Below, one piece after another: positions 3,141 to 45,965 of a stretch of DNA of 64,000 bases. Position 1 is the stretch's first letter. Each line of letters begins with the position of its first letter. The DNA comes from Patescibacteria group bacterium (GTDB taxonomy: Bacteria; Patescibacteriota; Patescibacteriia; UBA9570; JAHJKD01). Where the stretch lies: contig JBAZVM010000008.1 of NCBI GenBank assembly GCA_041660885.1, positions 7,537 to 71,536 on the forward strand, in the 5' to 3' direction. Both the position numbers and the translations under genes were made by a program. The notes below the pieces were generated by a model. It was not told the DNA's origin. It worked only from the letters and a program-made list of their open reading frames with translations, and searched no databases.

Positions 3141-4608
3141 CGTTTTTCTTTTTTTTGTTTATAACTTTTTTCAGTTCCGCCATTTTTAATTCTCGGCCGA
3201 CCATCAATTTGTTCATGCGCTCCATGATATCCGATCTTTTTCTATATTCTTCCTGTTCTTGCTTTCTTTGTGTAATATCGCGCAAGATACCCACGGCGTG
3301 ACATTTGTTTCTTATTTCCGTGGCCGTCAAAGATAACTCCACTAATATTTCACTATTATCTTTTTTTCTCATAGCTAATTCCATCGTCGTATTCAAACTG
3401 CATATGTTGCTTCCGCCCTCAAATTGCTTTATCTCTTTTTGATATTTCTCATTATCCTTTTTGGCCACTATCAAACTAAGCAGCTTTTTTCCCATAACTT
3501 CTTTTTTCGAATAACCGAATATTTTTTCAGCAGCTTCATTCCAATAAGTAATTTCAGCGTCTTCGTCTATCATGAATATGCCGTCTTTGGCCACTGTGGC
3601 GATAGAACGAAATTTTTCTTCGCTGTCTTTATATTGCGCCGCTGCTTTATCCGCGGCGTTTTGCGCCCGATTGCGGGAAGAAGAAAAAGAATAAATTAAT
3701 AAAGAAGTGCCAAAACTCATGAGAAGGCCGAAGATCAGCACTATCGATGGTAAATACTGTTCCGGACCAGTCAAACCGAAATTTTTGTTTGCGTAATATA
3801 TAAATAACCACGGATGCCCGTAGAGGTTTCGTTCTATTCGATACTCCATGTATTGGTTTTGCGCTGCGCTGTCTGCTAAATTTTTCTCGCTTTCGAATAA
3901 TAAATTGCTATTATCTATCGTGGAACTTAAGCTGGCATCCTTGATGGAAAAAAACAAATTTTCTTCATTCCCATGCGCGTTTTTTATAATATTAGATAAA
4001 AAAATATCCGCATCTATGGGTGTATTAACAAACCCGATCAAAGCTCTATTGCGTTCTTGCGCGTTGGAAATGAGTTCCCCTTCTTTATAAATGGGGATGG
4101 TAATAAAAAAACCCGGTTTATTATTGCTATACAGGGTAACCATACCAGATGCTTGCACATTATCATTATCCGCAGCCTTTTTCATGAGCGCTGCCCTTGT
4201 CGGATCTGCTTTTAAATCGGTATCAAGAACGCCAATATTCTTTTCTTCTGGATAGGCGTATTTTATCCGCCATTGTTCGGTTTGCTCTGTTTGGCTTTTC
4301 TCTATGAAATACACAGAATCTACGCCCGGATAAGCGTCAACAATATTCAACGCCTCTTCAAATTGCTGGAATTCATCTGCGTCTACAATTTCGCTGGCAT
4401 CGAATAATCCGCGCACTCCGTATAAAGCTCCGGCATATATCTCTATATTGTGTTCAATGTCTACTATTTGCTTTTCCGCCTGATTCTCAAAATTCTGGCG
4501 GGCTTTAAGATGTATATTATTTTCAAAAAAGAAATAGAAAAAAACAGAAGCGCTAATGCCAATAATAAAAAGGGCGGCCGGGAGAGCTATTGTTTTAAAA
4601 AATTTCAT
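3130..4608 (-). CDS. CHASE-like extracytoplasmic sensor plus PAS protein lacking any kinase or output domain
   Basis: 492 aa. Strong SD (AAGGAGGA) before the ATG. TM, a periplasmic domain of about 270 aa, a second TM, then PAS (DGIFMIDEDAEITYWNEAAEKIFGYSKKEV) and a C-terminal coiled coil. No H-box or ATPase motifs. The stop overlaps the start of the kinase gene by 11 nt. Confidence 0.65.
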   Translation of the reverse strand: MKFFKTIALPAALFIIGISASVFFYFFFENNIHLKARQNFENQAEKQIVDIEHNIEIYAGALYGVRGLFDASEIVDADEFQQFEEALNIVDAYPGVDSVYFIEKSQTEQTEQWRIKYAYPEEKNIGVLDTDLKADPTRAALMKKAADNDNVQASGMVTLYSNNKPGFFITIPIYKEGELISNAQERNRALIGFVNTPIDADIFLSNIIKNAHGNEENLFFSIKDASLSSTIDNSNLLFESEKNLADSAAQNQYMEYRIERNLYGHPWLFIYYANKNFGLTGPEQYLPSIVLIFGLLMSFGTSLLIYSFSSSRNRAQNAADKAAAQYKDSEEKFRSIATVAKDGIFMIDEDAEITYWNEAAEKIFGYSKKEVMGKKLLSLIVAKKDNEKYQKEIKQFEGGSNICSLNTTMELAMRKKDNSEILVELSLTATEIRNKCHAVGILRDITQRKQEQEEYRKRSDIMERMNKLMVGRELKMAELKKVINKKKKNDGQ

Positions 4609-5082: not shown

Positions 5083-5157
5083 TGGAGCGGGATACGGGAA
5101 TCGAACCCGTCTCTCATCCTTGGGAAGGATGCATAATAGCCACTATACTAATCCCGC
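5083..5157 (-). tRNA. tRNA-Gly (anticodon CCC), CCA encoded
   Basis: The reverse complement GCGGGAT..CATCC-TTCCCAA-GGATG..ACGGG-TTCGATT-CCCGT-ATCCCGC-T-CCA folds as a cloverleaf. It has a 7-bp acceptor stem, a 5-bp anticodon stem, a 7-nt loop with CCC at positions 34-36, and a T-loop TTCGATT. Confidence 0.85.
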
Positions 5158-7050: not shown

Positions 7051-7127
7051 TGGTCGGGGTAGAGAGACTCGAACTCTCGACCTCATGCACCCCATGCATG
7101 CGCGCTAGCCAACTGCGCTATACCCCG
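7051..7127 (-). tRNA. tRNA-Pro (anticodon GGG), CCA encoded
   Basis: Reverse complement CGGGGTA-TA-GCGC-AGTTGGCTA-GCGC-G-CATGC-ATGGGGT-GCATG-AGGTC-GAGAG-TTCGAGT-CTCTC-TACCCCG-A-CCA. This is a perfect cloverleaf of 77 nt with anticodon GGG. Confidence 0.88.
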
Positions 7128-7169: not shown

Positions 7170-7560
7170 TTAAGTGAAATGTGACCGCCGACCGCACGAA
7201 CGCGATTTGAAATCGAGTCCGCGCAGCCGACGGTGTCCCTTCAGATACGGTGCCAGCGGCTGATGCCGTCGGCACTTCGACGAAGGGTGAAGGTCCAGAC
7301 CAAGCCAGTAGCAAGGTCCTTTCCCTCGTAGAAACTGCGACCGCCCACGCACCAAAACCGAAGGACCAGAATCCCTACCATGATCCACCCCCTGACAAAA
7401 ACAAAAAGGCTTCTTACCCCAATAATAGTTCGGATAAAAAGCCTTCTTGCTTTTGCCCACTTGCGCGAGCCGTATCGTTCCCTTAGGGTAGGTTTTGCCA
7501 CCTTATCCAAAAGACAGGTTGGCGAGCAGTCATCGGGCCTAATCCCTCGTGCTTCTCTTG
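7170..7560 (-). ncRNA. Unclassified structured RNA candidate (strand uncertain)
   Basis: About 390 nt, visibly GC-richer than the surroundings and covered only by four mutually overlapping low-complexity ORFs on both strands. Complementary segments: 7182-7193 (TGAC-CGCCGACC) with 7517-7532 (GGTTGGCG-agca-GTCA); 7227-7233 CCGACGG with 7266-7272 CCGTCGG; 7315-7321 GGTCCTT with 7361-7367 AAGGACC; 7406-7412 AAGGCTT with 7439-7445 AAGCCTT. A GCTATAAT -10 motif on the minus strand at 7605-7612 and co-orientation with tRNA-Pro favour the minus strand. Confidence 0.45.
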
Positions 7561-7604: not shown

Positions 7605-7612
7605 ATTATAGC
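7605..7612 (-). promoter_or_regulatory. Candidate -10 element (GCTATAAT) upstream of the GC-rich RNA region
   Basis: The minus strand reads cGCTATAATttat, overlapping the stop codon of the 7606-8148 gene. The same 8-mer precedes four other transcription units in this window. Confidence 0.35.
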
Positions 7613-8148
7613 GCCGTCAAATTTTTACGATCAATATTATAAAATCCCCACTCGCTCCAGCGCCAAATGGCTTGATATTTTGGTTTGCACTTATATTTTT
7701 TGGTGTATTCTCCTTCTAATACCACCAACTCGTTCTTACCATCATTATCTATGTCCTTTATTTCCGCGGAACAATTCGGTTTATTTAAATTAGAAGACTG
7801 CCAAACGGAATTTACCGTTTCCCCATCTAATTGATAAAGAAATAAATGATTCTTTATGGAATCATCATTCTTCCGCACCCAAAAAGGCTTGGACGAACCG
7901 TAATCGCCCGGTTTCCAAACCAATAAATTTATCTCGGTTTGGCCGTCGTTATTGCTGTCCGCCAAAATAAATTGGTCCACATGCCATTCTTTGGGCGTCT
8001 GCCATAAATGTTTATCGTTTTTCGTTATGGTGAAAATATTGTTTTGCAATGAATAACAAACGCCTGCCATACATTCAACGGTACGGACATGCCATGGCAT
8101 GTCCGTACGCGATAATAAAAAATACAACGCGATTAAAATTAATTCCAT
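7606..8148 (-). CDS. Small FG-GAP/VCBS-like repeat protein with an N-terminal hydrophobic anchor
   Basis: 180 aa. ADSNNDGQTEINLLVW and IKDIDNDGKNELVVLEG are FG-GAP/VCBS-type Ca-binding loop motifs. The ATG directly abuts the upstream TAA (TAAATG). Confidence 0.55.
   Translation of the reverse strand: MELILIALYFLLSRTDMPWHVRTVECMAGVCYSLQNNIFTITKNDKHLWQTPKEWHVDQFILADSNNDGQTEINLLVWKPGDYGSSKPFWVRKNDDSIKNHLFLYQLDGETVNSVWQSSNLNKPNCSAEIKDIDNDGKNELVVLEGEYTKKYKCKPKYQAIWRWSEWGFYNIDRKNLTAL
8081..8108. repeat. Perfect 28-nt GC-rich palindrome inside the CDS
   Basis: GTACGGACATGCCA|TGGCATGTCCGTAC. The two 14-nt arms are exact reverse complements. It encodes ..RTDMPWHVRT.. just after the hydrophobic N-terminus. 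Confidence 0.9.
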
Positions 8149-10473: not shown

Positions 10474-12399
10474 ATGGAAAATTTATCTTTACGCGCCAAA
10501 ATAGCGTTAATCAGCCTTGGTTTTATTATGGTTATTTGCCCTTGGCTCGGAGGCGGATTACTACCGGACTTCTCTTACCAAATCATTCTTATTCTTACAG
10601 CTTTATCGCTTTTTTTATTCGGCATGGTTTTTATCGTGGAAAAAAAGCCATTTATATCAGAAAAAAAGCCTTTTATATTTATTTTTCTTTTTTTATTTAT
10701 CGCGGCCGGAATAATAAGTTCTATTTTTTCTATTCGTTCATACAACAGTTGGTCGGAGTCTATTATGTGGCTTGCCGGAATCGCTCTTTTTATAATTCTC
10801 TCCCAATTGAATACCGAAGGCATTTTAAAAAAATTTGCTTGGTTTTTTATCAGTATGGGATCCATAGTTTCCGTGGCCGGTTTTATTATTTTTTTTCTTA
10901 ATGATGAATCCAGATTAGAATCGGTTTTGGCCAATCCGAATTTATTATCCGGCTATCTTATTGGTATCTGGCCTATTGTTTTAACTTTATTATTTTTACC
11001 TTCTGCAAAAAAAGTAAAAATTCTGCTCTATATTCTAAACATAATCATAGCAAGCGCTTTTGTTTTAACGGTTTCTTACAGTGCGTGGGCGGCTATTGTG
11101 CCGATTATATTATTCTTGATCATATATTTTAGAAAAAAAATATTCAATATAAAATTCATGGCTTGGGTTTTATTAGCCTGTTTATTGATATTTACTAATG
11201 TTTCCTTATTGCGTTATTACAATACTAATTCTGCCACAGAGGGCGTGGCGGTTTATAAAAGCATTACCAAAACTCACGCCAGTTACAGCGGCAGCCAGCG
11301 CTTAGATTTTTTAAAAAACGGTTTAAATATTTTCACTGAACATCCGCTAACCGGCATCGGGCTTAATAATTTAAAGCTGGCTTACCAAAAAAAACAAACC
11401 AATATCGTGGAAACTCCCCGCTCCACGCACAATAATTATTTGGATATTTCTATTGAAATGGGAATATTAGGCATTATCGGCTTTGGCGGATTTATTTTAT
11501 TTTTATTTATTAAATTTTTAAAATTAAAAAATAATTTATATTGCTTGGGATTATTTTTAGGATGGATGGGTTTATTGATTTACGGGGCCGTGGATTTTGC
11601 CTGGCAAATAAAAATTATTATTGTGCATTTTTTTATTATGTCCGGGTTGTTGTATGGGTGTTATTTGCGGCAAAATAAAAACTCCGTAGTGGCGACTCTA
11701 GAGTCGCCACTACTACGAAATGCATCCCGTAAAATAATAATTTTTATTTTTATAATTTTATCCCTTACATTTTTCGCGCGCGGGGTGCAAATATTTTTAA
11801 ACAATAATAATAAAATTCAAGGCGAACGCTACCAAGAATTAAGTGAATACAGAACCGCGATTAGCTATTATAATCAAGCTTACCGATACGACAAAGATCC
11901 GGATTTATTAGCTAAAATTGGCATTCTGCAATACACGGAAGAAAACTACGCGGAGGCGGAAAAAACCACACTCCTATGGATAGAAAAAAGCCCCCACGAT
12001 CCCTCGGCTTACCAATTGCTCGGGCGAATATTCAAAGCGCAAAATAAATTAGTTGAAGCCAATGAACAATTTAATAAAGCGTTAATCCTGGCCCCTTATA
12101 CGAATTCGGAAATAAAATTGGATTCTATCGAAACAAATTTTATGTTAGGCAATTATAAAATCGTTGTTGATGAAGTAGATCCCTATATTATTATTTATAG
12201 CGTTAACAGGCCGGAGCCGACATGGGAAATAAAAAACAGCATTTCCATAAACTTAACGAAAATGCTGGATTACCAAGGAGACGCTTATTTAGCTTTAGGT
12301 GATAAAGAAAAAGCCAGGGATTCCTGGCAACGAGCTCTGTTGGAGCGGCCTTCTTATTATATCGCCCAGCAAAAAATTGATAAATTAGATAACTTATAA
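10474..12399 (+). CDS. O-antigen ligase/polymerase-like (Wzy_C) polytopic membrane protein with a C-terminal TPR domain
   Basis: 641 aa with about 10-12 TM segments. A loop with HPLTGIGLNNLKLAY...PRSTHNNYLDISIEMG, typical of the O-antigen ligase family. C-terminal TPR-like repeats (YNQAYRYDKDP, YQLLGRIFKAQNKLVEANEQFNKAL). Confidence 0.7.
   Translation: MENLSLRAKIALISLGFIMVICPWLGGGLLPDFSYQIILILTALSLFLFGMVFIVEKKPFISEKKPFIFIFLFLFIAAGIISSIFSIRSYNSWSESIMWLAGIALFIILSQLNTEGILKKFAWFFISMGSIVSVAGFIIFFLNDESRLESVLANPNLLSGYLIGIWPIVLTLLFLPSAKKVKILLYILNIIIASAFVLTVSYSAWAAIVPIILFLIIYFRKKIFNIKFMAWVLLACLLIFTNVSLLRYYNTNSATEGVAVYKSITKTHASYSGSQRLDFLKNGLNIFTEHPLTGIGLNNLKLAYQKKQTNIVETPRSTHNNYLDISIEMGILGIIGFGGFILFLFIKFLKLKNNLYCLGLFLGWMGLLIYGAVDFAWQIKIIIVHFFIMSGLLYGCYLRQNKNSVVATLESPLLRNASRKIIIFIFIILSLTFFARGVQIFLNNNNKIQGERYQELSEYRTAISYYNQAYRYDKDPDLLAKIGILQYTEENYAEAEKTTLLWIEKSPHDPSAYQLLGRIFKAQNKLVEANEQFNKALILAPYTNSEIKLDSIETNFMLGNYKIVVDEVDPYIIIYSVNRPEPTWEIKNSISINLTKMLDYQGDAYLALGDKEKARDSWQRALLERPSYYIAQQKIDKLDNL
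11686..11713. repeat. Perfect 28-nt GC-rich palindrome inside the CDS
   Basis: GTAGTGGCGACTCT|AGAGTCGCCACTAC. It encodes ..VVATLESPLL.. in the linker between the membrane domain and the TPR domain. Confidence 0.9.
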
Positions 12400-15914: not shown

Positions 15915-18900
15915 TTATTTAAACGGCTCCCAGCGATAAACTTCTTTTCCCTTGCCATTAATAATGGCGATAATTTTTTTATTTCTTATCTTCAAGCGAT
16001 AATCTCGGCGAATGTATTTATACATGCTTCGTTTCAACAAATGGAATTTATTATCCTCAATATTAAAGCTGTAAGCTTTTAGGTATATGGAAGAACCGCG
16101 CTTGGAAGAGACTACCACTTCTTCGGTGTTCTTTGTGGTATTCAAGTTTCCCACGGCCATTCTTCTCCAATGCAACTTGGGAGATAATCTTTTTGATGTG
16201 ATTAAAGTGCCAAGAGTGTCATAAACGCGCACAGACGAACCAGAGCGCTTTTTTACGGCAAAAACATAAATGTCGTTTTTGATTTCGGCTAATCTGGGAA
16301 GTACCCCGCCCACATGGAAAGCTTCCCAGCTGGCCATTAGCAGATGATCTTGGTTGAATAAACGGATTATACCCCTTCCCTTGTTAGTGCCCGTGCTGTA
16401 ATGCACTATTTCGCTGTCGGAATCATCGTCTGGCTCGGTTACGGAAACCAACACGGCATTGCTTTGGGCGGTTAAACTTCCGGAGTCTGTGGCAACAAAG
16501 TACACTTCCTCCGTACCAATATAATCTTCACTGCTGGTCATGGTAACTTCTCCATTGCTAACGGTAATTGTAATATCCGTATTACCGGTGACGGAATAAG
16601 ATAAGATAGGATCTTCCGCGTCTGAAAAATAACTATCTAAGTCAAAAACATTAGCTACGGTATCGCCGGCAAAAAATGAAACGCTTGAAAGTGACCCGGA
16701 AAAGGTCGGAGCGGTATTGGTTTCATCAATAGGGGCGGCGGTGTTATCCAGCGCGAAAGCCGCGCTCTCCACGGCCGTTCCAATGTCGGTGCCGTCGTAT
16801 GGCGTAATGCGTATTAGCGCGTCGGGCACATCTGCCGCAGGTTCATCAGTCATGGAATTCCATATAGACGAAACCGTGTTCGCGCCACTTGATGTTAAAA
16901 TATATCCCGCAGCCTCACCAATGGGATAGGCATTTGTATTATCTATTTCCGGATCGCCAAAGGTGGCCGTGGTATTATCGTCGGTTGTAGAAATAGTAGC
17001 TTTTTCCCAGCCCGCGCCGATATTATACTCTACAAGAGCTTCTACGGTGTCGTCATCGTCTGCGTCGTCCGCTTGAAAAGAAAAGGATACATCTCCGCTA
17101 TCATCCGCTACTTGAGAAGCGGTAACAGAAGCGGCTGTGGGCGCGGTATTTGCCGGACCGCCGCCGCCATCAAACGTAAACGCTACTTTCCCAACAGTTG
17201 GAGTATCAAAAGGATCGTCGGTATATAAAGTTGCAGCTAAATCCAAAGTGGCAGTGACGCCTGCATCAAAGCCTCCGCTGGCTGCCCAATCAGTGTTGAC
17301 CAAAGCGCTCATTTCCGTACTATCCATTTGGTTATTGGCGCCCGCTGCCACGGCCGCGGAAATGGCCGCGCTTTTATTGTTCGGAGATGCCGCTGTCCAA
17401 ACGCTGGCGTTATCGCGATAATACCAATTTCCTTCCGTGCCGCCATGATCTGAATTTTTATTGGAAGCGATGGCTCTCCATGAACCCCAAACTTTATAGC
17501 TGTCTCCGCCATCAAAGGAAACCGAGTAATACGCGTGCTGCCCGTTTAAAGTTTCCGTAACAGTAGCGGCATCTATACTTGTTTTTGCCGAAACATCCAA
17601 TTGGCTGGTGGCATTGGAACTGAAAGTAAAGTAAGTATCAGCCGGAACACCGTCTGGAATTACTTTATCCAGAGTTTGATTCCAAGTATCCCCCACCCAA
17701 GCTGCGCCATCCGCGTCAAAAATTAATGAGTCGGCGTATTCCACGGTGTTTGATTTTTCTTTTTTCAGCCTGCCGTTTGTCGGATCCACAATAGAAAAAG
17801 AACCTTCTTCGTCTTGCACTGTCCAAATTTCATTTCGAGCGGTATTCACTTGAACATCCAATGGATGCTGCCCCACTTCATAAAGCCCCATGGGTTCGCC
17901 GTCGGAAGTTCTGACGGCCGTAAGAAAACCGATTTCTACCGCGCTTAATAACGCACCGTCGACAGTCCAAAGCATGTCTCTGGTCGAATCATAAATGGTT
18001 TCATCCGCCCATTCATAGATTATTGGCAATGGATACTTACTATCAGTTACAGTACCATTGGCAAAAGCAGTATCGTGAACTTTCACCATATAACCGTAAT
18101 AATTCCATGTTGCCCAAATATCTTCGTGCGTTGAATCGTAAGTAATAGCGTTGATTGCTGCATCGGGGTCAAGCGTGGTATCTAACGACCCGTCGCTCGG
18201 GTCATACTGCAATAAAGTATCATCAAAATAAGATCCCACCCAAATGGCATCGTGTGCCACATCATATCCAACAGTAATTGGCATATTACTCGCGGCAAAA
18301 GTGCTGGCTCCAATGGTGCCAAAATGATAACTGCCGGTATCGGCATCAACAACTGTTATCGTATCATCATCGTAATTGGCTATCCATAAATTGTTTCTAC
18401 TGGAATCTAAAGCAATACCACGCGGGTCATTGCCCACGGCAGTGGTAATTAAAGTGGAAGTCGCAACATCCAAAATATTTACCGTATTATCAGCGGCGTT
18501 AGGAAAAAATATGTGTTCCCTGGTGGCATCAGCGGTCTTCGCGTATATTTCCGTATCAACAAATTGTTCCACATTAATAAAATCGTCGTTTAGCTTAACA
18601 GTGCCGTCTTGATTTTCCATACAAGTTATAGAATCAACAGTTATTTCTCCATCCAATAGAGCCAATTCATCGTAAATATCCAACGGCAAAATATTGTCTC
18701 TTGTTAGTTCCGCGCTATAACCAAGTGTGGCTTCATCAACTACTTGAACAAAAGTATAGACTGTTCCGCCGATATCTATTTTGCATCCCGGTTTTATTTT
18801 AGAAGCAGTAAGATCTATATAGATACTATTGTTATAATCATCCATGTCATGGTAAAAACTTACCAGCCCGTTTCCCCAAGGATAAAACGCACCAATGGTA

Positions 18901-20987
18901 GTGCTGGTAGTATCTTTAATATCTTCCTCGTCAAAATCCGAGATTTGTTCAAATTCAAATGCCGTAGTCGCGGTATCGTCATCCTGGTTTTTCACAGCTA
19001 CATCATCTGGATTGATACCGTTAAAACGCGTATCAGTAGAAGAAGTTGAACCAAGTTGAATGGTATAAGAAACTAGACCGTCGTTATCAGCATCATTTTG
19101 CCCGGTCACTGTTACGGTTTGCTCGGTTTCCCAATTGGCCGAGGTGAAAGTTAATAGCGCGGTGGAAACCGTTCCTTCGCTGGTGTCCGAACTGACCACG
19201 GGGATAGTAACATCATTTTGCGGACGGCTGGTTAAATAAACAGTGAATGTAGCCGTATCACCGTCTTCCGATGTTTCGCTGCTGATTTCAGAAACATAGA
19301 TTTCAATACTTTCCGAAAAATCGATATTCGTGTTTCCACTAATATCCACACAGCGCAAGCGGCAATCAAATTCCGCGCTGGTATTATTAATGTCGGTAAG
19401 GGCGGCATCAAAAAATAACACATCACCATCAAAATGTAATTCCGCCGGGGTGCCTGATGAAGTGCTGTAAACCGGCAGCCTGGTGCTGCGCGTAATGCCA
19501 TCCGTGGAAGAAACGCCAAGCCCGATTACTGCCTCGCGCGTAAATGTTTGCGTGTCGCCGGCGCCGAATTGGATATATCCGGTATAATCAGAATAATCTC
19601 TGGTAAAATTATAGAATGTATTATCTCCGGTAATAACATGGTTATTATGAGTTTGAGTGGAAAACTGCGCGAGGACAACCGTTCCTTCATTGGCATCGAA
19701 AGTTCCGCCGTTGTTATCCCAGTTTTCTCCCAATAACGTGGTCTCCGCTGCAGTATAAGTTCCTCCAACATTTAAGGTTAAATCCTTATAGAATCTCATA
19801 CTTGAATAAGTATCGCTGTCTATTTCTCCGGCATTAAGAGTCACGTCACCTTGAAATCCCATTGTGCCTTGAATTGTGGCGTTTGGATTATCCAAAATCA
19901 ACCCGGGAAGAAAATCTCCGCTCTCGGCTAGTGTAATGGTTTGAGTGGATGTTCCTGTCCAATGAATTATTCCGTCTCCTCCGTCGAAATCGTCTGCCCC
20001 GGTATTATTAATAGTGGTTTGTGCTTCGATGGTTCCGGTATAAACAGCGCCATCGGTTAAAGTTAAAACTCCTTCCGCCACTAAAGTGTCCCCTGTGGCA
20101 ATAGTGACTCGACGGAGGCTGGTTGTTTTATGAACTATAATATTATTCAATGTCAGGCTGGTGTTGACATCAGCGCCCGTATTGGAAGTTCCGCTGAATT
20201 CCAAAGTGCCGCCGTTATCATCGAAAGTTACCCCGCTCTGAACCGTAAGGTCGCCAGACAAAGTAAGCGTGCCTGATGTGGAAGTAAATGTACTGCCAGT
20301 ATTCAAAGTTAACGGACCTGTATCGGATATGGATTGCGTGGCGCCGGTAAAAGTTCCTCCATTTTGCACAAAACCGCTGGTACCAACGGCTAAAGTAGCC
20401 GCTTGGGTTATAACGCCACCATAATCTGAATCAATGGTAATCCCTGCAATCGTAACCGCTGTATTAATGGTGACACTTTTACTTGAAGTAGTGCCATCAA
20501 AAACTACGGTATCGGTTGTAAGCGGTGCCGTATTCAAATCCCAATTCTCCGGAGTGTTCCAGTTATTGTCTATTCCTCCGCCATCCCAAGTTTTAACGGC
20601 CGCGCTAGCGGACTTGGTAAACCAAGGAGTTCTATAAAAAGTCACGGCGGAAAAATCAGCGATGTATATTAAAGCGATAATGGCTAAGCCAAAACATAAA
20701 GCGTACGCTTGCACGCTTTCTTTTAGTTGAAGATGTTTATGATAAGAATGTTTATATGTGCCATTTCTGTGCCGTTTGGCTTCAAAATGAAAACTGCGAT
20801 AAGAGCTTAAAAAAAGCAGGCTGAAAGCCTGCGCAAAAGTATAAAAACAAACTAAAGGAAACAAAAGGAGCTTATGAAAAAAACCAAGAGCCGGTATTCT
20901 TTTTTTTTCAGTGCTTTTTTTAATAAAGTACGGAATCCTTTTCATAAATTTTTTAAAATACAAAAAATTATGCTCATATTTTAACAT
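15915..20987 (-). CDS. Giant surface protein paralog 1 (1690 aa; likely true start ATG 20945)
   Basis: An uninterrupted ORF. It carries the shared N-terminal module (from MKRIPYFIKKS...) and a W-DGGG..NW..NW start. Next come beta-helix-like T/G-rich repeats and a Ca/cadherin-like segment. YVTN/NHL-like propeller repeats follow (NLWIANYDDDTITVVD, DAIWVGSYFDDTLLQYDP, NEIWTVQDEEGSFSIVDP). It ends with the shared C-terminal domain. Confidence 0.8.
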   Translation of the reverse strand: MLKYEHNFLYFKKFMKRIPYFIKKSTEKKRIPALGFFHKLLLFPLVCFYTFAQAFSLLFLSSYRSFHFEAKRHRNGTYKHSYHKHLQLKESVQAYALCFGLAIIALIYIADFSAVTFYRTPWFTKSASAAVKTWDGGGIDNNWNTPENWDLNTAPLTTDTVVFDGTTSSKSVTINTAVTIAGITIDSDYGGVITQAATLAVGTSGFVQNGGTFTGATQSISDTGPLTLNTGSTFTSTSGTLTLSGDLTVQSGVTFDDNGGTLEFSGTSNTGADVNTSLTLNNIIVHKTTSLRRVTIATGDTLVAEGVLTLTDGAVYTGTIEAQTTINNTGADDFDGGDGIIHWTGTSTQTITLAESGDFLPGLILDNPNATIQGTMGFQGDVTLNAGEIDSDTYSSMRFYKDLTLNVGGTYTAAETTLLGENWDNNGGTFDANEGTVVLAQFSTQTHNNHVITGDNTFYNFTRDYSDYTGYIQFGAGDTQTFTREAVIGLGVSSTDGITRSTRLPVYSTSSGTPAELHFDGDVLFFDAALTDINNTSAEFDCRLRCVDISGNTNIDFSESIEIYVSEISSETSEDGDTATFTVYLTSRPQNDVTIPVVSSDTSEGTVSTALLTFTSANWETEQTVTVTGQNDADNDGLVSYTIQLGSTSSTDTRFNGINPDDVAVKNQDDDTATTAFEFEQISDFDEEDIKDTTSTTIGAFYPWGNGLVSFYHDMDDYNNSIYIDLTASKIKPGCKIDIGGTVYTFVQVVDEATLGYSAELTRDNILPLDIYDELALLDGEITVDSITCMENQDGTVKLNDDFINVEQFVDTEIYAKTADATREHIFFPNAADNTVNILDVATSTLITTAVGNDPRGIALDSSRNNLWIANYDDDTITVVDADTGSYHFGTIGASTFAASNMPITVGYDVAHDAIWVGSYFDDTLLQYDPSDGSLDTTLDPDAAINAITYDSTHEDIWATWNYYGYMVKVHDTAFANGTVTDSKYPLPIIYEWADETIYDSTRDMLWTVDGALLSAVEIGFLTAVRTSDGEPMGLYEVGQHPLDVQVNTARNEIWTVQDEEGSFSIVDPTNGRLKKEKSNTVEYADSLIFDADGAAWVGDTWNQTLDKVIPDGVPADTYFTFSSNATSQLDVSAKTSIDAATVTETLNGQHAYYSVSFDGGDSYKVWGSWRAIASNKNSDHGGTEGNWYYRDNASVWTAASPNNKSAAISAAVAAGANNQMDSTEMSALVNTDWAASGGFDAGVTATLDLAATLYTDDPFDTPTVGKVAFTFDGGGGPANTAPTAASVTASQVADDSGDVSFSFQADDADDDDTVEALVEYNIGAGWEKATISTTDDNTTATFGDPEIDNTNAYPIGEAAGYILTSSGANTVSSIWNSMTDEPAADVPDALIRITPYDGTDIGTAVESAAFALDNTAAPIDETNTAPTFSGSLSSVSFFAGDTVANVFDLDSYFSDAEDPILSYSVTGNTDITITVSNGEVTMTSSEDYIGTEEVYFVATDSGSLTAQSNAVLVSVTEPDDDSDSEIVHYSTGTNKGRGIIRLFNQDHLLMASWEAFHVGGVLPRLAEIKNDIYVFAVKKRSGSSVRVYDTLGTLITSKRLSPKLHWRRMAVGNLNTTKNTEEVVVSSKRGSSIYLKAYSFNIEDNKFHLLKRSMYKYIRRDYRLKIRNKKIIAIINGKGKEVYRWEPFK

Positions 20988-21013: not shown

Positions 21014-24000
21014 TTAAAATGGTTTCCAGCGGTAGACTTCTTTGCCCTTACCGTTGAGGACTACGATGACATTCTGATCCTCTATCTGCAAACGATAATC
21101 TTTGCGCACATATTTGAATTTAGATCTCTTTTCTAAAGTGAAATGATGCGAATCCGGATTAAAACTATAAATTTTAAAGTATATTGAAGAAGCGCGCTTG
21201 GTGGCGATGGCGGTTTCTTCGGTGTTAATTCTTCCGTCTAAATCTCCGATAGCTATTTTTCTCCAATGTAATTTTGGGGATAATCTTTTTTTGGCTAATA
21301 ATCTTCCTCTTATAGTATAAGCGTGCAAAGTGGTGCCTGATCTTTTCTTAATGGCAAAGATGTAAGAATTATTTTTAATGGCGGCCAAACGAGGTATAAC
21401 TCCACCCACTCCGAAAGCCTGCCATGATGTTATCAGTTCGTTATTTTTAGTCCAAACTTTTATTATTCCTCTTCCCCTGTTGGTTCCGGTGATATGATCA
21501 ATATCGCTTTCCGTAAACTTTGAAACTGTTACTATTATGGCATTGCTGGTGGCGGTTTCTCCGGAAGGATCTTCAGCTATAAAATTCATGGCTTCTTGGC
21601 CGGAATAATTATTATCCGTTTCCATGGTAACTATTCCTTCTTCAATATTAACGGTTATTTCCTCGTTGCCCGTTGCCGAATAAGTTAGAACATCTCCTTC
21701 GGCATCGGCAAAGTAATCGTTCAGGTCAAACAGCGCGGCCGTGGTTATGCCGGAATAGAAAGAAACATTAGGCAGAGAGCCGACAAAGTAAGGAGGCGTA
21801 TTGGTTTGTTCAGAAACATTATTTACGGTGATATCCAAAGTATGAGAAACCGTGTTTTCCGCGTCAGTCGCGTCGAAACGCACTTGATAAGTGCCCGCGT
21901 CATCGGCGCCGGTGTGCCAAGTAAAGGTGCCGGATTTATTTCCATGATCAGTGAAGAGTTCATTAATATTACTTAAATTTCCCAGCATATCTACTGCGTC
22001 TAAAGTAATAGCGGAACTGTCCACATCAGCGGCTGTGATAGGCAATACGATAGTATCTCCTTCGTCTACTGTTACGCTGTCGTTGATGTCGGTGACGAAA
22101 GTGGGAGCATCGTTGCTGGCGGTGACATGAATGGTAATTTGGTCTACGCCGGAATCCACGGTTCCGTCGTTTACCGTTAAGCTATAAACGCAATCGTAGC
22201 TAGATTCTTTATTCAAGAGAGTAACGGTTGGCGTGGCGCTGGTGTTGTTATCTAAGCTGCAACCATCTCCGCTGTCAGATACTTCCGTCCACGCGTAGGT
22301 AATAACATCTCCGGTATCTACATCAGAACCAGTTCCACTTAAAGCAACAGATCCGGCAGACTCGTTTGTATTAATATCAACGCCGGCATCAGCTATTGGC
22401 GTATCATTAACCGGATCTACGGTTAAAGTAATGTCATTACTGTCTACCGTAGCTAAACCGGTATCCGTGCATCTGAATTTTACAGTCTGGTTGCCGTTGT
22501 AATTTGCGTCCGGTGTGAAAGATACTTTATTATCACCGTCTATGCTTACGGTAATGTTGGCGGGGTCTGTTGGTACGGTATAGGTGCAGCTGTCTCCGGG
22601 GTCGATATCAGTGAAGTAAGTGTCTAAATCAAAAGCATTGGTTTTGGTGGTGTCTTCGTCCCAAGCCATAACAGAAATAATACCGGCAAAAGTCGGGGCA
22701 TCATTAACATTGGAAACATTCACGGTGATGGAATTGGAAGCAGTGGAAGCGCTGCCTAAGTCTTCACAAGAGAATTGGATAGTGTCTGTGCCAGTGGCAT
22801 TGGCTAATAAGGTAAAGTCTATGGTTTGATCTCCGTTAATAGTCATGGTGCCTAATGCTGCGGCTAAATCATTGGTAGCAGTGCAAGTGTATAGGTCGTT
22901 ATCATTCCAATCAGCATCAGAGAAGTAAGTGTCTAAATCAAAAGCATTTGGCGTATTTACATCTTCTGTTAAATTTTGAGTGGGTATACTGCTATCTAAA
23001 GCAGGTGATGTGTTTAGAGTAGTAAAATTGGTGCAAGAAGAATAACTGGAATCGCCACTGGTTTGATCATCGCTATAGCGTACTTTGAAAGAATATTGCG
23101 TGTGTCCTTTAAGATCTGTTTTACCCGCATGGCTGTTTTGGAAAGAACCATCGGTAGAATCAATATCTATGCTGGTTAAGTTTGTTCCGCTGTCTTCTTT
23201 TTGCCAAATAGCTGAACCGGAACAATCAGAAGATTCATAAACATACCAATCACTGGATGTGTGCGGATCTGAATCAGAGTCGCTAAAGGCTGATGCGGTT
23301 AAAGTGGCATTCTTGCTTTGGTCTGTGGCGCCATTGATTGGTAAAGAGTTGGTTGGCGTAGGGGGAACATTATTAGCTGCCGAGGTAAAGTTTACCGGGG
23401 TGGACCAATCTGAATCTCCACCCGGAGAGGCGTATCTAACGCAAGCGTAATAACTGGTGTTGGCTGTTAATCTTGTTTTTCCTGCTAATGCTCCTGAGAA
23501 GGTACCATTGGTGCTGTTAGCTGTTATGCTGGTTTTGTTTACGGCATCATTATCTTTAGACCAAACAATATTGCTAACGCAAGAATTGCTGGTGGAGATA
23601 GTCCAATCAGAGCTTTGGTGTTCGCCATAACCGCTGTAAGCGCTGCCGCTCATAGCCGGAGTCCTAGTTGAATCGCTCATGGTTAGGGTAGGAGCATTGG
23701 CTGTGGCATCGTATTCCAGAGTAATACTGTCTAGTTCCACTTCTTCCGTGGTATCGGAGATTAAGAAAGCTTTAAAGTAGAAGTCTCCGGTGCCAATTTC
23801 AGAAGGAAAATTAATTAAATAGGCGTTTACTTGCTCAATCGTATTGTATTGAGAAGGCTCACTCGTTACCGCTGTCCAAGCCGCGCCATTATGGTAGTAC
23901 CAGTCTGTGCCATTATCGGAAATATTATAGCCGATGGATCCTTCTACCGTTCCGGTTGTCGCGCTTATGCCTAATAAATTGGTATAAGTGGGGTGCGTGC

Positions 24001-27000
24001 CGGCTAAAGACGGAGAAACCGTGATATCAGAGAAAGTAGAATTGTTTTCAATGCCACCGGGAACGAGAGTGGGTTCAATGGTGGCGTATTTGCGGATTCT
24101 AAAATTATCTATCTTGGCACCGGTTGAAGTTTCATAATTATATAAACCAACATATCCCGAAGTCCAAGTGGCTTCAGTATAAGAATTAGATGCTACTAAG
24201 GCGGTTTTTTCCTGATCAGTATAATATTTCGTATTAAGAGTTGTTCCGGAAAAAATTTCACTCATATACATCCAGACATTGTCGGAAAATGTATAATCTT
24301 TAGAATTAAGGATGCCACCCCACCCAGCGGATACACGATGATGAAAATAATTAGTATTAACCGGATGTCTTTTAATACTAACATCAACATTATCCGCATT
24401 GTTTTTTGCCTGAGAACGATGCATCATGCCATTGTCCATCGTGGTGTGGGCATAAAGATCATAATCCATGGCGTAATTAGTAAATGAAGAAGCAGAATCA
24501 GCCATAATAAAATTATAACCAGCGCCGCTAACATAATTTAATGTACCGCCTGTCGTATCAAAAGTTCCGGCAATAGCCACCCACTTGCTTAAGTCACCGC
24601 TAAAATCGTCGAAAAACTCAAACGTGTCCGTGCCACTACTAGCACTGCTCACGCCGGCATTGCCATAATACATATATATATTCGCGGAAGAGGAGGCGCC
24701 AACGCTTGGTACTTCCACCCAGAAATAAGCTCTGGTGGAATCAGTTTTACTTTCCAACCAATAGTCTATTAATGATGTGCCATTTGAAGAGGTAAATCTG
24801 ATGTCATCAAAATCCGCTTGCATATCAGCATCGTAACTAACTGGAATACGCACCTGATAGTTGGTAAGCTCAGAAGCCGTATTATTAAACACGGTAAATA
24901 TTTGCCTTTTAGACCAATCGGCCAAAGCAATACTGGATTCTTCGGTCCAAGCAATTATTGGTTCACTAGAAACATTCTGACGGACACGGAAATCATCAAA
25001 ATAAGCAGCGGCTGTACCCGTATTATATGTCGCCATTCCAACATAACCGCTATTATTGGTTGTAGCTGTGTCCGCGACACTCCAACCTCCGGAATCGGGT
25101 GTATTAAGAATCCAGCTCTTGCCGCGTATATTATTTCCTTCTATTTGAAACCGCCAATTCCACCATTCGCCAGTTGCTTGCGCGGTTGTCGTAGAAGCCT
25201 TCCACACAATATTTTCATCTAACAATTGGAGTGTTGTTGATGCAACATGCGCAGTAAGTGCATATTCCCTGGAGCTACTTGTTGTAAGAGCATTCCCCCT
25301 TCCTAGAAGATAGATATGCGAATCACCTCCGCCAACCGTTGAAAGATTAACTTTTGCATCTATAATCGTATCTGTAACGCTTAATAATGAGCCATCTACA
25401 TTTGCGAGCACTTTGTCGATCGTTCCGGAGCTAACATCCGGTCTATATAAGGTATTACTAGAAATTTGCCAATTGCCGTCTCCATATTCACTCCAATCCG
25501 CACCTAGACTAGTTGAATCATCGCGATTAAAGTCATCAAAGAAAATAAATGTATTATCGCCGCTAGAGCCGCTTGAAACAGTCGCATTCCCATAATACAT
25601 ATATATGGTAGCCGATGAAGAAGCGGAAATAGTCGGCACTTCCACCCAAACAACGGCTCTGCTGGAATCGGTTTTACTTTCCAGCCAATAGTCTATTTCT
25701 GTTGTACCGTTAGAGGTAGTAAATCTTAAATCATCAAAATCCGCTTGCATGTCGGCATCATATAAAACATCTAGTTTCACTTGATAATTTGTAAGTTCAG
25801 ATGCAGTGGCATTAGTGACGGTAATTTCTTTGCGTTTTGTATAGTTGAGCAAAGGCGCTCCTTTATATACTCCGGCGCCTTGATCTTTTAATCTGGCTAA
25901 ACTATTGCTGGAAGCGTCTAACTCCACATAAGTATTGTTATAATCATAATTATCTCCGACAACAGCTTCATTAAAATGCCAAGTGGCATCAGTAGATGGA
26001 TAATCATATTCCGTGGTAAAGGTCACTGAACCCCAATCGCTGTCTCCTGCGTCGTTGGTATAGCGCACGCAAGATTTGTATGTTGTGTTATTTGATAAGC
26101 CAGCACCAACCGTGATAGAAGTAAGATTAACCGCGTCGTGTTCCGATTCCCAAACAGCCGCATCACTGCACGTGTCGGTGGAGGCGACGATTTTCCAATC
26201 AGTAGTATTATGCGTTATATCCGACACATAAGCGGAACCCGTCATTGTCGGCGTTAGGCTGTTGTTATAAGAATTATTCAAGGGGCTTGAAAATGAAGGT
26301 GTGTCCGCGACAGATACTTCAATTAATGAAGAAGTTCCAGCTTCCCCAGCATATCCAGTGGTTCCGGCAATCACGCTTAAGGAGCCACCATAGGAATCAT
26401 CGCTAGTGGATATATAAATGCGTCCACCGCCACCGGCGCCGGCATTGGCGGTTTGCGCGCTAGAACCATTCGTCGTAATGTTGGCGCTTCCGGTGAGTGA
26501 TCCGGTTATAGCCGCCCAAACAGAGCCTCCGGAACCGCCTCCATAGTTACTGCTAGATCCGCTGTAATCTGATCCACCGTTGGCGCTGATCGTGCCGCCT
26601 ACGCTCATATTTCCACCGACGGTAAGTTTTACCGCGCCGCCGCCGGAAGATCCATAATTGGAAGCCGTGCTTCCCATGCCTCCTGAACCGATATTGGAAG
26701 GAGCAGTTTCCGAGCCGTATGTGGCGCCACCAGTGTCTCCACCGTCTGAAGTGTTTCCTCCGCGGCCGCCGTATCCGCCGCCGGATCCATAAGTGCCGGC
26801 ATCATGGCCATGGCCATCGCCATAGCCGCCGTTATAACCTTTTCCATCCACATTAATCGTTCCGGTTGCTCCAATAGTAGCGTCTCCTGTTGTGGTGTAA
26901 ACAATTTTATATGTTTCCGCGGTAGTATTCTTCGATGTGGTCATTGTGCCATCAACATCCAAAGAATTTATTGATCGAGTTGTGTCGGCATATAGTATTG

Positions 27001-40719: not shown

Positions 40720-42702
40720 TTACAAAATACTAATAAATTCTTTTTCTGAAAGGATTTTTATGTTAATTTTCTTTGCTTTCGTATATTTAGAGCCAGGTTC
40801 CTCCCCCGCAATTACATAATCGGTCTGTTTAGAAACTGAGGAGGAAATATTTCCGCCGGCTTGCCTGATTTTTTCTTTGGCTTCATCGCGCGTCATGGTT
40901 TTTAAAGTGCCGGTTAAGACGAATGTGTTGCCGGTTATCGATTTATTGGCGGAGACGCGATAAATCGCGTCTCTACGGATACACACCCCATTTTGCAATA
41001 ATTTTTTTATTAAATCCTTATTTTTCTTATCTTGAAAAAAATCATACACGCTTTTGGCCATCACTTCTCCCACTTCGTGAATTTTATTAAGTTCTTCTTG
41101 GGAAGCGTTTATTAATTTGGAAAGCGAACCAAACTGGCCAGCCAAGTCATAAGCGGTTTCTTCACCCACATGGCGTATGCCCAAAGCGTAAATGAATTTA
41201 GCAAAAGAAACCTCTTTAGCTTTGGCAATACTCTTAATTAGATTGTCCGCGGATTTTTCCGCGAATCGTTCCAACAGCTGCAGATCTTCTTTTCTTAGAG
41301 AAAAAATATCAGCCGCGTCCGCGATCAATCCTTCTTCCAGCAGCTGATCTATAATTTTCGGGCCAAGGCCGTCGATATCAAAGGCTTTTTTAGAAACAAA
41401 ATGATAAAGCTTTTCTTTTTCTTGCGCAAAGCATTGCTTGTTGGAACAATAATGCGCCACTTCGCCTTCGCGGCGCAGAACTTTGGAACCGCATGCCGGG
41501 CAAGTCTTGGGAAAAATAAAAGCCTTGGCATTATTCGGCCGCAAATTTTTTAGCACTTTAACAATATCGGGGATAATATCTCCGGCCTTCTGGATGATTA
41601 CCGTGTCCCCTACGCGCACATCCAGCCTTTTTATTTCATCTTCATTATGCAAAGTAGCACGGGCGACTGTTGTTCCGGCCACAGATACCGGTTTTAAATG
41701 CGCTACGGGTGTCAGCGCGCCCGTGCGGCCTACTTGTACTTGAATATCCTCCACAATAGTCGTTGCTTGCTCGGCCGGATATTTATAGGCGATTCCTCCT
41801 CTAGGCGCTTTACCGGCCACTCCCAACTTTTTAAACAACGCAATATCATTTACGTTAATCACCGTGCCATCGGACCAGTAATTAAATTTTTTGCGTATCT
41901 TACCGATTTTTTCGTAATATTTTTCTACTTCGTTTAAATCACGGCAATGAGCGTTATGCTCGTTGCTTCTAAACCCCAAGCGCGTTAATTCTTGATGCAC
42001 TTGTTCGTGCGTGGCAAGCCCGATATCGGAAGCAATATCATAAGCCATAAAATCCAGCTTGCGCGAGGCGGGAATTTTTGGGTCCAACTGGCGGATAGAG
42101 CCGGCCGCGATATTGCGCGGGTTCGCGTATTTGCCTTCTTCTCGCTTATTCAAAGCCTCAAAATTTTTCTTGCTCATATACACTTCCCCACGCACCTCTA
42201 TTTTTTTTGGGAAAGGTTCGTTTAATTTTAATGGAATGGAATTAATTGTCTTTAAATTAGAAGTGACGTCTTCTCCGATTTTTCCGTCCCCTCTTGTGGA
42301 ACCTTGCGTTAATAAACCGTTTTCGTAAATTAAATTAACAGCCAAGCCGTCCATTTTTATTTCCGCGTAATAATCAAATTTATCCTGCGGCGCCAACTTT
42401 TTTATTCTTTTTTCCCAATCCTGAAGTTCATCAAAGCTAAAGCAATCCACCAGCGAAAGCATGGGTTTGCTATGAGCGACTTTATGAAAAGCGGCCAGCG
42501 CTTTTCCCGCCACCCTTTGCGTGGGTGAATCCGGCGTAATTAAAACGGGCCACTCCTGCTCCAATATAAAAAGCTCGCGCTTTAGCGAATCTAAAGCCGC
42601 GTCGGATATTTCTTGCTTATCCAAAACATGATACTGATAACGGTAATGGTTTATCTCTTTTTTTAATTTTTCTATTCTGGCCTTAGCTTCAGATTTATTC
42701 AT
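40720..42702 (-). CDS. ligA: NAD-dependent DNA ligase
   Basis: 660 aa. Adenylation motif KMDGLA, an OB fold, a Zn finger CPACGSKVLRREGEVAHYCSNKQC, HhH repeats and a C-terminal BRCT (FVLTGTL...R.EAKEKI...GG.ISSSVSKQTDYVIAGE.PGSK..KA). Confidence 0.95.
   Translation of the reverse strand: MNKSEAKARIEKLKKEINHYRYQYHVLDKQEISDAALDSLKRELFILEQEWPVLITPDSPTQRVAGKALAAFHKVAHSKPMLSLVDCFSFDELQDWEKRIKKLAPQDKFDYYAEIKMDGLAVNLIYENGLLTQGSTRGDGKIGEDVTSNLKTINSIPLKLNEPFPKKIEVRGEVYMSKKNFEALNKREEGKYANPRNIAAGSIRQLDPKIPASRKLDFMAYDIASDIGLATHEQVHQELTRLGFRSNEHNAHCRDLNEVEKYYEKIGKIRKKFNYWSDGTVINVNDIALFKKLGVAGKAPRGGIAYKYPAEQATTIVEDIQVQVGRTGALTPVAHLKPVSVAGTTVARATLHNEDEIKRLDVRVGDTVIIQKAGDIIPDIVKVLKNLRPNNAKAFIFPKTCPACGSKVLRREGEVAHYCSNKQCFAQEKEKLYHFVSKKAFDIDGLGPKIIDQLLEEGLIADAADIFSLRKEDLQLLERFAEKSADNLIKSIAKAKEVSFAKFIYALGIRHVGEETAYDLAGQFGSLSKLINASQEELNKIHEVGEVMAKSVYDFFQDKKNKDLIKKLLQNGVCIRRDAIYRVSANKSITGNTFVLTGTLKTMTRDEAKEKIRQAGGNISSSVSKQTDYVIAGEEPGSKYTKAKKINIKILSEKEFISIL
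40952..40973. repeat. GC-rich inverted repeat (10-bp arms, 2-nt centre) inside ligA
   Basis: GAGACGCGAT-aa-ATCGCGTCTC. It encodes ..RRDAIYRVS.. in the linker between the HhH and BRCT domains. Confidence 0.85.
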
Positions 42703-45933: not shown

Positions 45934-45965
45934 AAAAAAGCCCCTCAATAAAAGGGGCTTTTTTC
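45934..45965 (-). terminator. Intrinsic terminator after the major pilin gene
   Basis: The minus strand reads AAAAAAGCCCC-ttttattga-GGGGCTTTTTTT, starting 12 nt after the pilA stop. A GC-core stem plus a U-tract. Confidence 0.8.

Follow-up and report, generated by a model that had tools for sequence, protein, structure and literature searches.

We find that the perfect 28-nt palindrome at positions 11686-11713 of a 64,000-nt stretch of DNA from a Patescibacteria group bacterium (NCBI GenBank assembly GCA_041660885.1, contig JBAZVM010000008.1; the whole stretch is called the window below) is very probably a single copy of a double-foot GTAG repetitive extragenic palindromic (REP) element, of the type that accompanies subclass 2.4 of the REP-associated tyrosine transposases (RAYT or TnpA-REP), inserted in a gene that joins a Wzy_C membrane domain to TPR repeats. 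The sequence, GTAGTGGCGACTCTAGAGTCGCCACTAC, reads the same on both strands, as two 14-nt arms without a loop, and is laid out as GTAG-T-GGCGAC-TCTAGA-GTCGCC-A-CTAC. One GTAG foot occupies 11686-11689, and the CTAC at 11710-11713 places a GTAG on the opposite strand too. The unit is thus a short foldable palindrome within the 20-50 nt of REPs, has the GT[AG]G of REPs at its hairpin foot, and carries on one unit the 5' GT[AG]G and 3' C[TC]AC that define the double-foot type. An earlier note on this DNA had described an exact 28-nt palindrome with 14-nt arms, in frame in the linker of a Wzy-like/TPR protein, and its sequence and coordinates were exact.

The palindrome is genuine, and chance would hardly produce it. 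Besides this one, the window has a single other perfect palindrome with arms of at least 10 nt, a sister element at 8081-8108, which makes two in all against mean expectations of 0.09 for arms of at least 10 nt and 0.01 for arms of at least 12 nt in 100 first-order Markov simulations. The earlier note had proposed a comparison of GC content and codon usage with the host gene; this comparison sets the 28-mer apart, with 57% GC versus 35% for the gene, and with CTA, TCG, CCA and GTA among its codons, all minority codons there. Two of the three frames through the 28-mer are free of stop codons on both strands, and the third (starting G-TAG) holds TAG, so a stop-free reading is in itself unremarkable. 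Placed in a 68-nt context, the 28-mer is predicted to form an RNA hairpin of -25 kcal/mol (z = -5.1). Rfam, searched at gathering thresholds, gave no match at either palindrome of the window. The same 28-mer was recovered from SRR18595301 as assembled independently by Logan (L001), and the identical 641-aa host protein is found in NCBI (in a metagenome-assembled genome, MAG, named 'Patescibacteria group bacterium'), JGI and Logan, which makes an artefact of a single assembler unlikely.

Within the host gene (Table 1), the 28-mer reads GTA GTG GCG ACT CTA GAG TCG CCA CTA C, or V V A T L E S P L, flanked by ...YGCYLRQNKNS and LRNASRKIIIFIFIILSL... in the protein. This site is a linker that follows the last Wzy_C hydrophobic segment and precedes an extra hydrophobic segment ahead of the TPR part. 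None of eight aligned Wzy/TPR orthologues (39-56% identity) has the segment. The alignment gap opposite it is exactly 8 codons in P0007-P0009, 5 codons in P0002-P0004 and 13 codons in P0005-P0006, and the length of the linker varies among orthologues. The lack of the segment in the orthologues, in three of them by exactly 8 codons, indicates, on the strength of these alignments, that the 28-nt segment is an insertion. The earlier note had named, as the result that would speak against it, an ancestral segment with unconserved palindromy. Neither is seen: the orthologues do without the segment, and the orthologues of the gene that hosts the sister element keep the pairing by compensating changes, as described below.

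The arms of the palindrome place it in a family. The motif GTAG-N-GGCGAC-N6-GTCGCC-N-CTAC, which matches 11686-11713 and is always 28 nt long, occurs at 12 loci in IMG/VR, and the same motif with A/T at positions 5 and 24 and a free 6-nt centre occurs at 73 loci in the representative genomes of GTDB. The GTDB loci are mostly from Chloroflexota, with others in Methylobacter, cyanobacteria, Glassbacteria, Omnitrophota, Uhrbacteria and one archaeon. Copies of this GGCGAC family are mostly perfect palindromes with unrelated flanks, such as GTAGAGGCGACGCATGCGTCGCCTCTAC (n=28) and GTAGAGGCGACCGGCCGGTCGCCTCTAC (n=10), and no base outside the 28-mer is conserved in the flanks of family members. The nearest relative of the window palindrome is GTAGTGGCGACTCGCGAGTCGCCACTAC in an Okeania MAG (L170), with 26/28 identical positions and one complementary pair of difference. 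The TCTAGA centre is absent among the 73 GTDB loci, where the source MAG itself is not among the matches, and viral contigs gave 0 matches to the exact or a near-exact palindrome.

The constancy of length extends to the class as a whole. We further note that 26 more distinct GTAG...CTAC palindromes with other internal sequences were met incidentally in the flanks of retrieved loci, that is, without being picked by the search patterns, and 23 of these are exactly 28 nt long. This observation, together with the association with RAYT/TnpA-REP described next, bears out the suggestion of the earlier note that the two palindromes reflect a length- or structure-constrained element or a common generating mechanism. 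Both are indeed in-frame linker insertions of one class. Its remark that this is 'not a simple repeat family' has to be revised, as each of the two belongs to a dispersed repeat family abundant in other genomes.

The link to a transposase emerges from other genomes that carry units of this class. In several contigs, copies of the sister family come in pairs spaced 1.1-1.8 kb apart. The pair in L067 encloses a 234-aa open reading frame (ORF) with the motifs NHVHGII and RFYEHIVR and a match to Pfam Y1_Tnp. A phmmer search of this ORF against all ORFs of the retrieved loci gave matches in more than 20 loci, and many of these have a palindrome within the homologous ORF. Sixteen aligned homologues show the motifs MPNH[VIM]HGI, (F/Y)xWQ and YIxNNP, and the alignment places the palindrome in a hypervariable stretch right after the HuH motif and before ...FSKPI.GSLS.IINQYK..., so that the REPs of these transposases fall between the HuH and Tyr motifs. 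The family-associated ORFs carry the signature of subclass 2.4 transposases (NH[IFV]H, WQ, YIxNNP). They also match NCBIfam NF047646 (REP-associated tyrosine transposase) with E values of 1e-11 to 1e-21 and scores below the equivalog cut-off, in addition to Pfam Y1_Tnp, and many of their relatives are labelled 'REP element-mobilizing transposase RayT' at JGI. Relatives in NCBI include proteins from MAGs of Parcubacteria (P0284) and Magasanikiibacteriota (P0366), both of the candidate phyla radiation (CPR), as well as from Saganbacteria, Labilibaculum and Xenococcus. The Parcubacteria and Magasanikiibacteriota relatives indicate that CPR genomes encode such transposases.

A map around 16 of the transposase genes shows REP-like units both within the ORF and 6-150 nt outside it. 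Members of the GGCGAC family itself take part in this arrangement. Two RAYT homologues contain an in-frame unit, at position 4179 in L188 (in the ORF at 3873-4427) and at 4324 in L177, and further units are found 66 and 117 nt outside the RAYT ORF in L177 and L183. The unit in L188 codes for VVATHASPL, in the same frame as the VVATLESPL of the window. Units of both families, GGCGAC and sister, are thus seen next to tnpA-REP genes of other genomes and, in frame, within them; the window copy has no such gene within the 64 kb.

Some contigs show more elaborate arrangements of these units. Mixed double-foot REP variants form regular clusters with a period of 48-49 nt, that is, a 28-nt unit and a variable spacer of about 20 nt, in L107 (1585-1757 and 2759-2882), L043 (1722-1846), L088 (2096-2171), L057 (8232-8307), L028 and L093. 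Some of the clusters lie inside RAYT ORFs, and they resemble arrays of the BIME (bacterial interspersed mosaic element) type and, superficially, miniature CRISPR arrays. Separately, contigs often start or stop at a REP unit (L002 at position 1, L013 at position 4, L109 at position 27), which suggests that these repeats break short-read assemblies.

The sister element at 8081-8108 offers a second view of the same class. It is read in frame as RTDMPWHVRT, directly after the N-terminal transmembrane helix of a 180-aa protein. Orthologues of this protein in L002 (72% identity) and L003 (60%) have a REP at the same place, with the sequences GTAGAGACATGCCATGGTATGTCTCTAC and GTAGGGACATGCCATGGCGTGTCCCTAC, respectively. 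The three copies differ mostly in complementary pairs (4/25 and 5/24), with one G.T pair in each orthologue, and identity between the orthologous REPs is 82-89% versus 69-78% for the rest of the gene, the differences being compensating ones. A further orthologue, in L213, is without the REP and is there exactly 8 codons shorter than that of L003. The kept pairing could reflect selection on the hairpin, arm-to-arm conversion or replacement by another variant of the family. We also observe that the Logan gene call P0012 starts at an ATG inside the sister REP and so predicts a protein of 164 aa, while the orthologues use an upstream start and have the N-terminal transmembrane helix; the P0012 start is a mis-annotation induced by the REP.

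The family of the sister element is widespread. The pattern GTANNGACATGCCATGGNNTGTCNNTAC matched at least 120 metagenomic contigs, with 28-59% GC and unrelated flanks among the matches listed, and two phage contigs, in both of which the element is intergenic. Among the matches listed, two perfect palindromes predominate, GTAGGGACATGCCATGGCATGTCCCTAC with 52 copies and GTAGAGACATGCCATGGCATGTCTCTAC with 44, and most copies are intergenic, with some in long ORFs as VETCHGMSL or RDMPWHV(S/P)T. Predicted phage contigs that bear the same 28-mers are L006 (1242-1269) and L007 (3201-3228), both from IMG/VR, and L128-L139. The unit in L006 lies in the small space that follows the stop of one ORF, at the point where the next ORF starts. 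Phages may ferry these REPs between hosts.

A search of the window with 70 family sequences revealed a third, decayed element at 40949-40976. In five shuffled windows taken together, one match of at least 21/28 to any of these 70 sequences was seen. The unit that the third element resembles, GTAGAGACGCGATTAATCGCGTCTCTAC, sits inside and beside a RAYT gene in L110. In frame, the element is translated as RRDAIYRVSA; it falls in the variable linker that precedes the C-terminal domain of a 660-aa protein, which from conserved motifs in an alignment, and not from a database match, appears to be NAD-dependent DNA ligase-like. The REP-coded stretch of this linker is 2-5 residues longer than in homologues. 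The window thus holds elements of three different sequence families, one copy each, all in coding linkers.

These observations fit a simple scheme. The unit of 28 nt is a self-complementary body of 20 nt with GTAG as its 5' foot and CTAC as its 3' foot, so that the same GTAG-headed hairpin is found on both strands. Such REPs are non-autonomous: as folded single-stranded DNA they are recognised, cut and rejoined by a TnpA-REP of the Y1/HuH type (subclass 2.4), with GTAG acting like the guide tetranucleotide of IS200/IS605 elements. The architecture, the place in a family by sequence, the insertion and the tie of the families to RAYT genes elsewhere are shown directly. We infer that a TnpA-REP of the subclass 2.4 type moved the window copy as single-stranded DNA, and we also infer the strand and the mechanism of insertion. 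The copy is likely to have survived since the net change, 8 codons more than in three orthologues, keeps the frame, the frame is free of stops and the linker is flexible. As a neutral passenger, it would now form a strong hairpin in its transcript. With genes densely packed and few, short gaps between ORFs in this stretch, tolerated intragenic sites make up much of the room available to such elements.

Several observations weigh against the assignment of 11686-11713 to the double-foot REPs. No RAYT gene is found in the 64-kb window, where phmmer and a profile of the 16 homologues run against the six-frame translation returned only a REP-coded peptide (E = 0.09). The exact 28-mer with the TCTAGA centre was found only in the organism's own contigs and, with no second identical copy elsewhere, membership in the family rests on the arms and the architecture. 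Classical REPs form high-copy families in each genome, yet the 64 kb yielded only three elements, each of a different family. REPs usually lie outside genes, but these three are all intragenic, and the copy at 11686-11713 is itself not in the location from which REPs take their name; this location does not exclude membership, as intragenic REPs are a documented minority (PMC3733652). Finally, 28 nt is not a multiple of three, so that the unit in itself does not keep the frame, and the scheme does not account for the net change of +24 nt that was seen twice. Nor is a gain of 8 codons general: the REP-coded peptide in the G6PD gene of L038 aligns to homologues from the PDB without a gap, and the ligase linker exceeds that of homologues by only the 2-5 residues given above.

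The +8 codons in two independent comparisons suggest, from the alignments, that one 4-nt foot may derive from the target. A bolder proposal builds on this and, in our estimation, is rather improbable. Double-foot REPs would be intrinsically frame-preserving, with a mobile 24 nt (body and one foot) that joins a pre-existing 4-nt target foot and always adds 8 codons; they would persist mainly inside the ORFs of gene-dense Patescibacteria; they might arrive in trans through RAYTs borne by phages or hosts; and their pairing would be actively kept in orthologues. Delivery in trans is conceivable, as phage contigs and members of different phyla carry the same 28-mers.

The foremost competing explanation, which we hold to be unlikely, is that the hairpin is an mRNA structure selected by the host, either a translational pause after the membrane segment or an RNase or stability element. 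Selection on RNA pairing would then maintain the palindromy. Such a role would be compatible with a REP origin by exaptation. The strength of the predicted RNA hairpin is in its favour, as is the sister element, which stands at the same site in three orthologues (60-72% protein identity) with nearly all differences compensating and one sense-strand G.U pair each. It also agrees with the position of all three window elements in linkers, two of them directly after membrane helices, and with the frequent G.T pairs and the RNA-level roles of REPs put forward by Di Nocera 2013 (PMC3733652). The Wzy/TPR orthologues, however, manage without the segment, and the occurrence of the same 28-mers in unrelated genes, intergenic DNA and phages argues against a gene-specific role. 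Two sense-strand wobble pairs have a 1-in-4 chance under neutrality, and the conservation of the sister element exceeds that of the remaining gene only modestly. Moreover, the sister orthologues bear different common variants of the family, so that replacement or arm-to-arm conversion fits as well as selection.

We consider it very improbable that the palindrome arose de novo by a replication error (template switching, snap-back or a 14-nt inverted duplication) and resembles REPs by coincidence. A loop-free perfect palindrome is the product expected of a strand switch, and no second identical copy of 11686-11713 was found. The 20 fixed positions (GTAG, GGCGAC, GTCGCC and CTAC) and the exact length of 28 nt are nevertheless shared with the family at 85 loci elsewhere, and a random 28-nt palindrome would have these 20 positions with a chance of about 4^-10. 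Inverted duplication of 14 nt would also shift the frame, and neither the foreign GC of the 28-mer nor the two further elements of the same class in the window would be accounted for.

Equally hard to sustain is a double-stranded site for a dimeric protein or a recombinase, such as an operator or a 28-bp Xer/dif-like site. The dyad symmetry of 11686-11713 is perfect, and its length equals that of dif sites. Those sites are 28 bp long, occur once per replicon, are usually intergenic and have an imperfect 11-6-11 layout. The window instead has three different sequences of the class in 64 kb, all inside ORFs, and the Xer/dif candidate was rejected on finding these three different, fully palindromic intragenic units. 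The families are dispersed through many phyla and through phages, where a contig may hold several copies, and their flanks are unrelated; their variants keep pairing by compensating changes and not a fixed half-site; and the consistent link is to a HuH transposase specific for single strands, not to a recombinase. Least credible of all is an artefact of assembly or library preparation (a palindromic linker or chimeric junction): palindromic adapters do occur in some library types, but the sequence recurs in independent assemblies (Logan L001; the NCBI and JGI protein), the three sites differ internally and keep the host reading frame, and the families show natural compensating variation across many studies and assemblers.

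Other candidates were rejected more directly. Insertion of a 22-nt palindrome into GTAC with TA duplication, as by an IS630/mariner-like miniature inverted-repeat transposable element or by repair of a restriction cut, does not agree with members that overwhelmingly end in GTAG/CTAC and have no conserved target in their flanks. A CRISPR repeat would be expected in an array with unique spacers of about 30-40 nt, and 11686-11713 is a single copy without a second match of at least 21/28 nearby. An intrinsic terminator was set aside by inspection, no terminator scan having been run: the hairpin is inside an ORF and no T-run follows right after the sense-strand stem, the sequence after the hairpin being TACGAAATGCATCCCG on the + strand and GGAGTTTTTATTTTGCC on the - strand. 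A bypassing reading was also considered and set aside.

Seen as REPs, the three GC-rich in-frame oddities of the window are explained as passengers and not as inventions of the host. REP/RAYT-type elements would then reach the reduced genomes of Patescibacteria and persist there inside genes. We further note that the peptides coded by REPs, such as VETCHGMSL, RDMPWHV(S/P)T and V(E/V)ATHASPL, can cause spurious similarity between unrelated proteins, and that annotation is affected in practice through wrong gene starts (P0012) and contig breaks at REPs (L002, L013). If the +24-nt rule were true generally, it would offer a handle on the mechanism by which REPs are disseminated.

The coordinates of the elements, their host genes and other features of the window are collected in Table 1. 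The SAM (S-adenosylmethionine) riboswitch listed there is directly upstream of a 96-aa ORF at 7170-7460 (-) with 54% GC, unusually high for the window.

Table 1. Coordinates of the palindromic elements, their host genes and other features in the window.
Feature	Coordinates	Strand	Basis or remark
Probable double-foot GTAG REP, 28-nt perfect palindrome	11686..11713	none	In frame in Wzy_C/TPR gene
Host of 11686-11713, 641 aa: TPR repeats joined to an O-antigen ligase-like membrane domain (Wzy_C, PF04932)	10474..12399	+	Pfam domains
Sister 28-nt perfect palindrome GTACGGACATGCCATGGCATGTCCGTAC	8081..8108	none	Rare variant of GTAG(G/A)GACATGCCATGGCATGTC(C/T)CTAC
Host of sister element, 180 aa, FG-GAP-like	7606..8148	-	REP shared with L002 and L003, absent in L213
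Decayed REP GCGGAGACGCGATAAATCGCGTCTCTAC	40949..40976	none	25/28 match to GTAGAGACGCGATTAATCGCGTCTCTAC
Host of third element, LigA-like protein, 660 aa	40720..42702	-	Conserved motifs in alignment
SAM riboswitch RF00162	7469-7567	-	51 bits, above gathering score
tRNA-Gly(ccc)	5083-5157	-	
tRNA-Pro(ggg)	7051-7127	-	
Giant ORF, 1690 aa (first of three consecutive)	15915-20987	-	ORF list
Giant ORF, 3127 aa (second)	21014-30397	-	ORF list
Giant ORF, 3389 aa (third)	30485-40654	-	ORF list
Classic terminator-like hairpin AAAAAAGCCCCT-CAATAAA-AGGGGCTTTTTT	45934-45964		Between two minus-strand ORFs

Among known systems, the IS200/IS605 elements (IS608, ISDra2) share the Y1 HuH enzyme family and the use of a single-stranded hairpin, in which a 4-nt guide 5' of the stem sets the cleavage site (PMC8266576). 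They differ in that the window element is a hairpin alone, with no transposase gene between two different ends. TnpA-REP (RAYT), an HuH/Y1 enzyme akin to the IS200/IS605 transposases, recognises a folded single strand in vitro and cleaves at CT or CA beside the structure; the GTAG is guide-like, and the mechanism by which REPs spread is unsettled (PMC8266576). The Rickettsia palindromic elements (RPE; via PMC3733652) offer a likeness of another kind, being in-frame palindromic repeats of a small, compact genome that occupy surface loops or linkers, although RPE-1 elements are much longer than the 28-nt unit.

The classical GTAG REPs (Di Nocera et al. 2013, PMC3733652; Nunvar et al. 2010, PMC2817692) are closer still. 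Like the window elements, they are short GC-rich palindromes with a terminal GTAG whose subfamilies differ by complementary changes in the stem. The catalogue of Di Nocera et al. (PMC3733652) records complementary stem variants, frequent G.T pairs and intragenic in-frame REPs, among them one in a DNA ligase gene, and proposes RNA-level roles; where such REPs occasionally sit in frame, each unit adds about 10 residues to the protein, and genes for DNA repair and DNA ligase are among those affected. Classical GTAG REPs, however, have an unpaired GTAG at one end and a 2-5-nt loop, reach hundreds of copies per family and genome, and are mostly downstream of genes. The window elements, in contrast, have a foot at both ends and no loop in the DNA, and are single copies of three families.

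The closest parallel is the subclass 2.4 REPtrons (Bertels group 4) of Quentin et al. 2018 (BMC Genomics 19:475, PMC6006769). A literature search that paired RAYT with Patescibacteria or CPR found no paper with both, and one for the literal palindrome sequences gave only unrelated primer matches. As described in section 13 and Table 1 of PMC6006769, TnpA-Y1 subclass 2.4 has the motifs NH[IFV]H, WQ and YIxNNP, is found in 'Cyanobacteria, Bacteroidetes and various phyla', and goes with 'double foot' REPs that combine 5' GT[AG]G with 3' C[TC]AC and lie in frame in tnpA-REP. These REPs have the same two feet and the same long, fully paired hairpin as the family of 11686-11713. The likeness extends to units that flank or enter tnpA-REP, to the same transposase motifs and to a patchy spread over many phyla. 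Unlike those REPtrons, the element reported here is in Patescibacteria, in an unrelated gene and with no tnpA-REP in 64 kb, and no other genome has so far yielded its exact sequence. The fixed length of 28 nt and the finding that identical 28-mers are shared very widely, phage contigs included, are observed here and do not appear in the sections of PMC6006769 drawn on for this comparison. The double-foot class is thus one that has already been described, and each of the features listed for it was recovered here independently.

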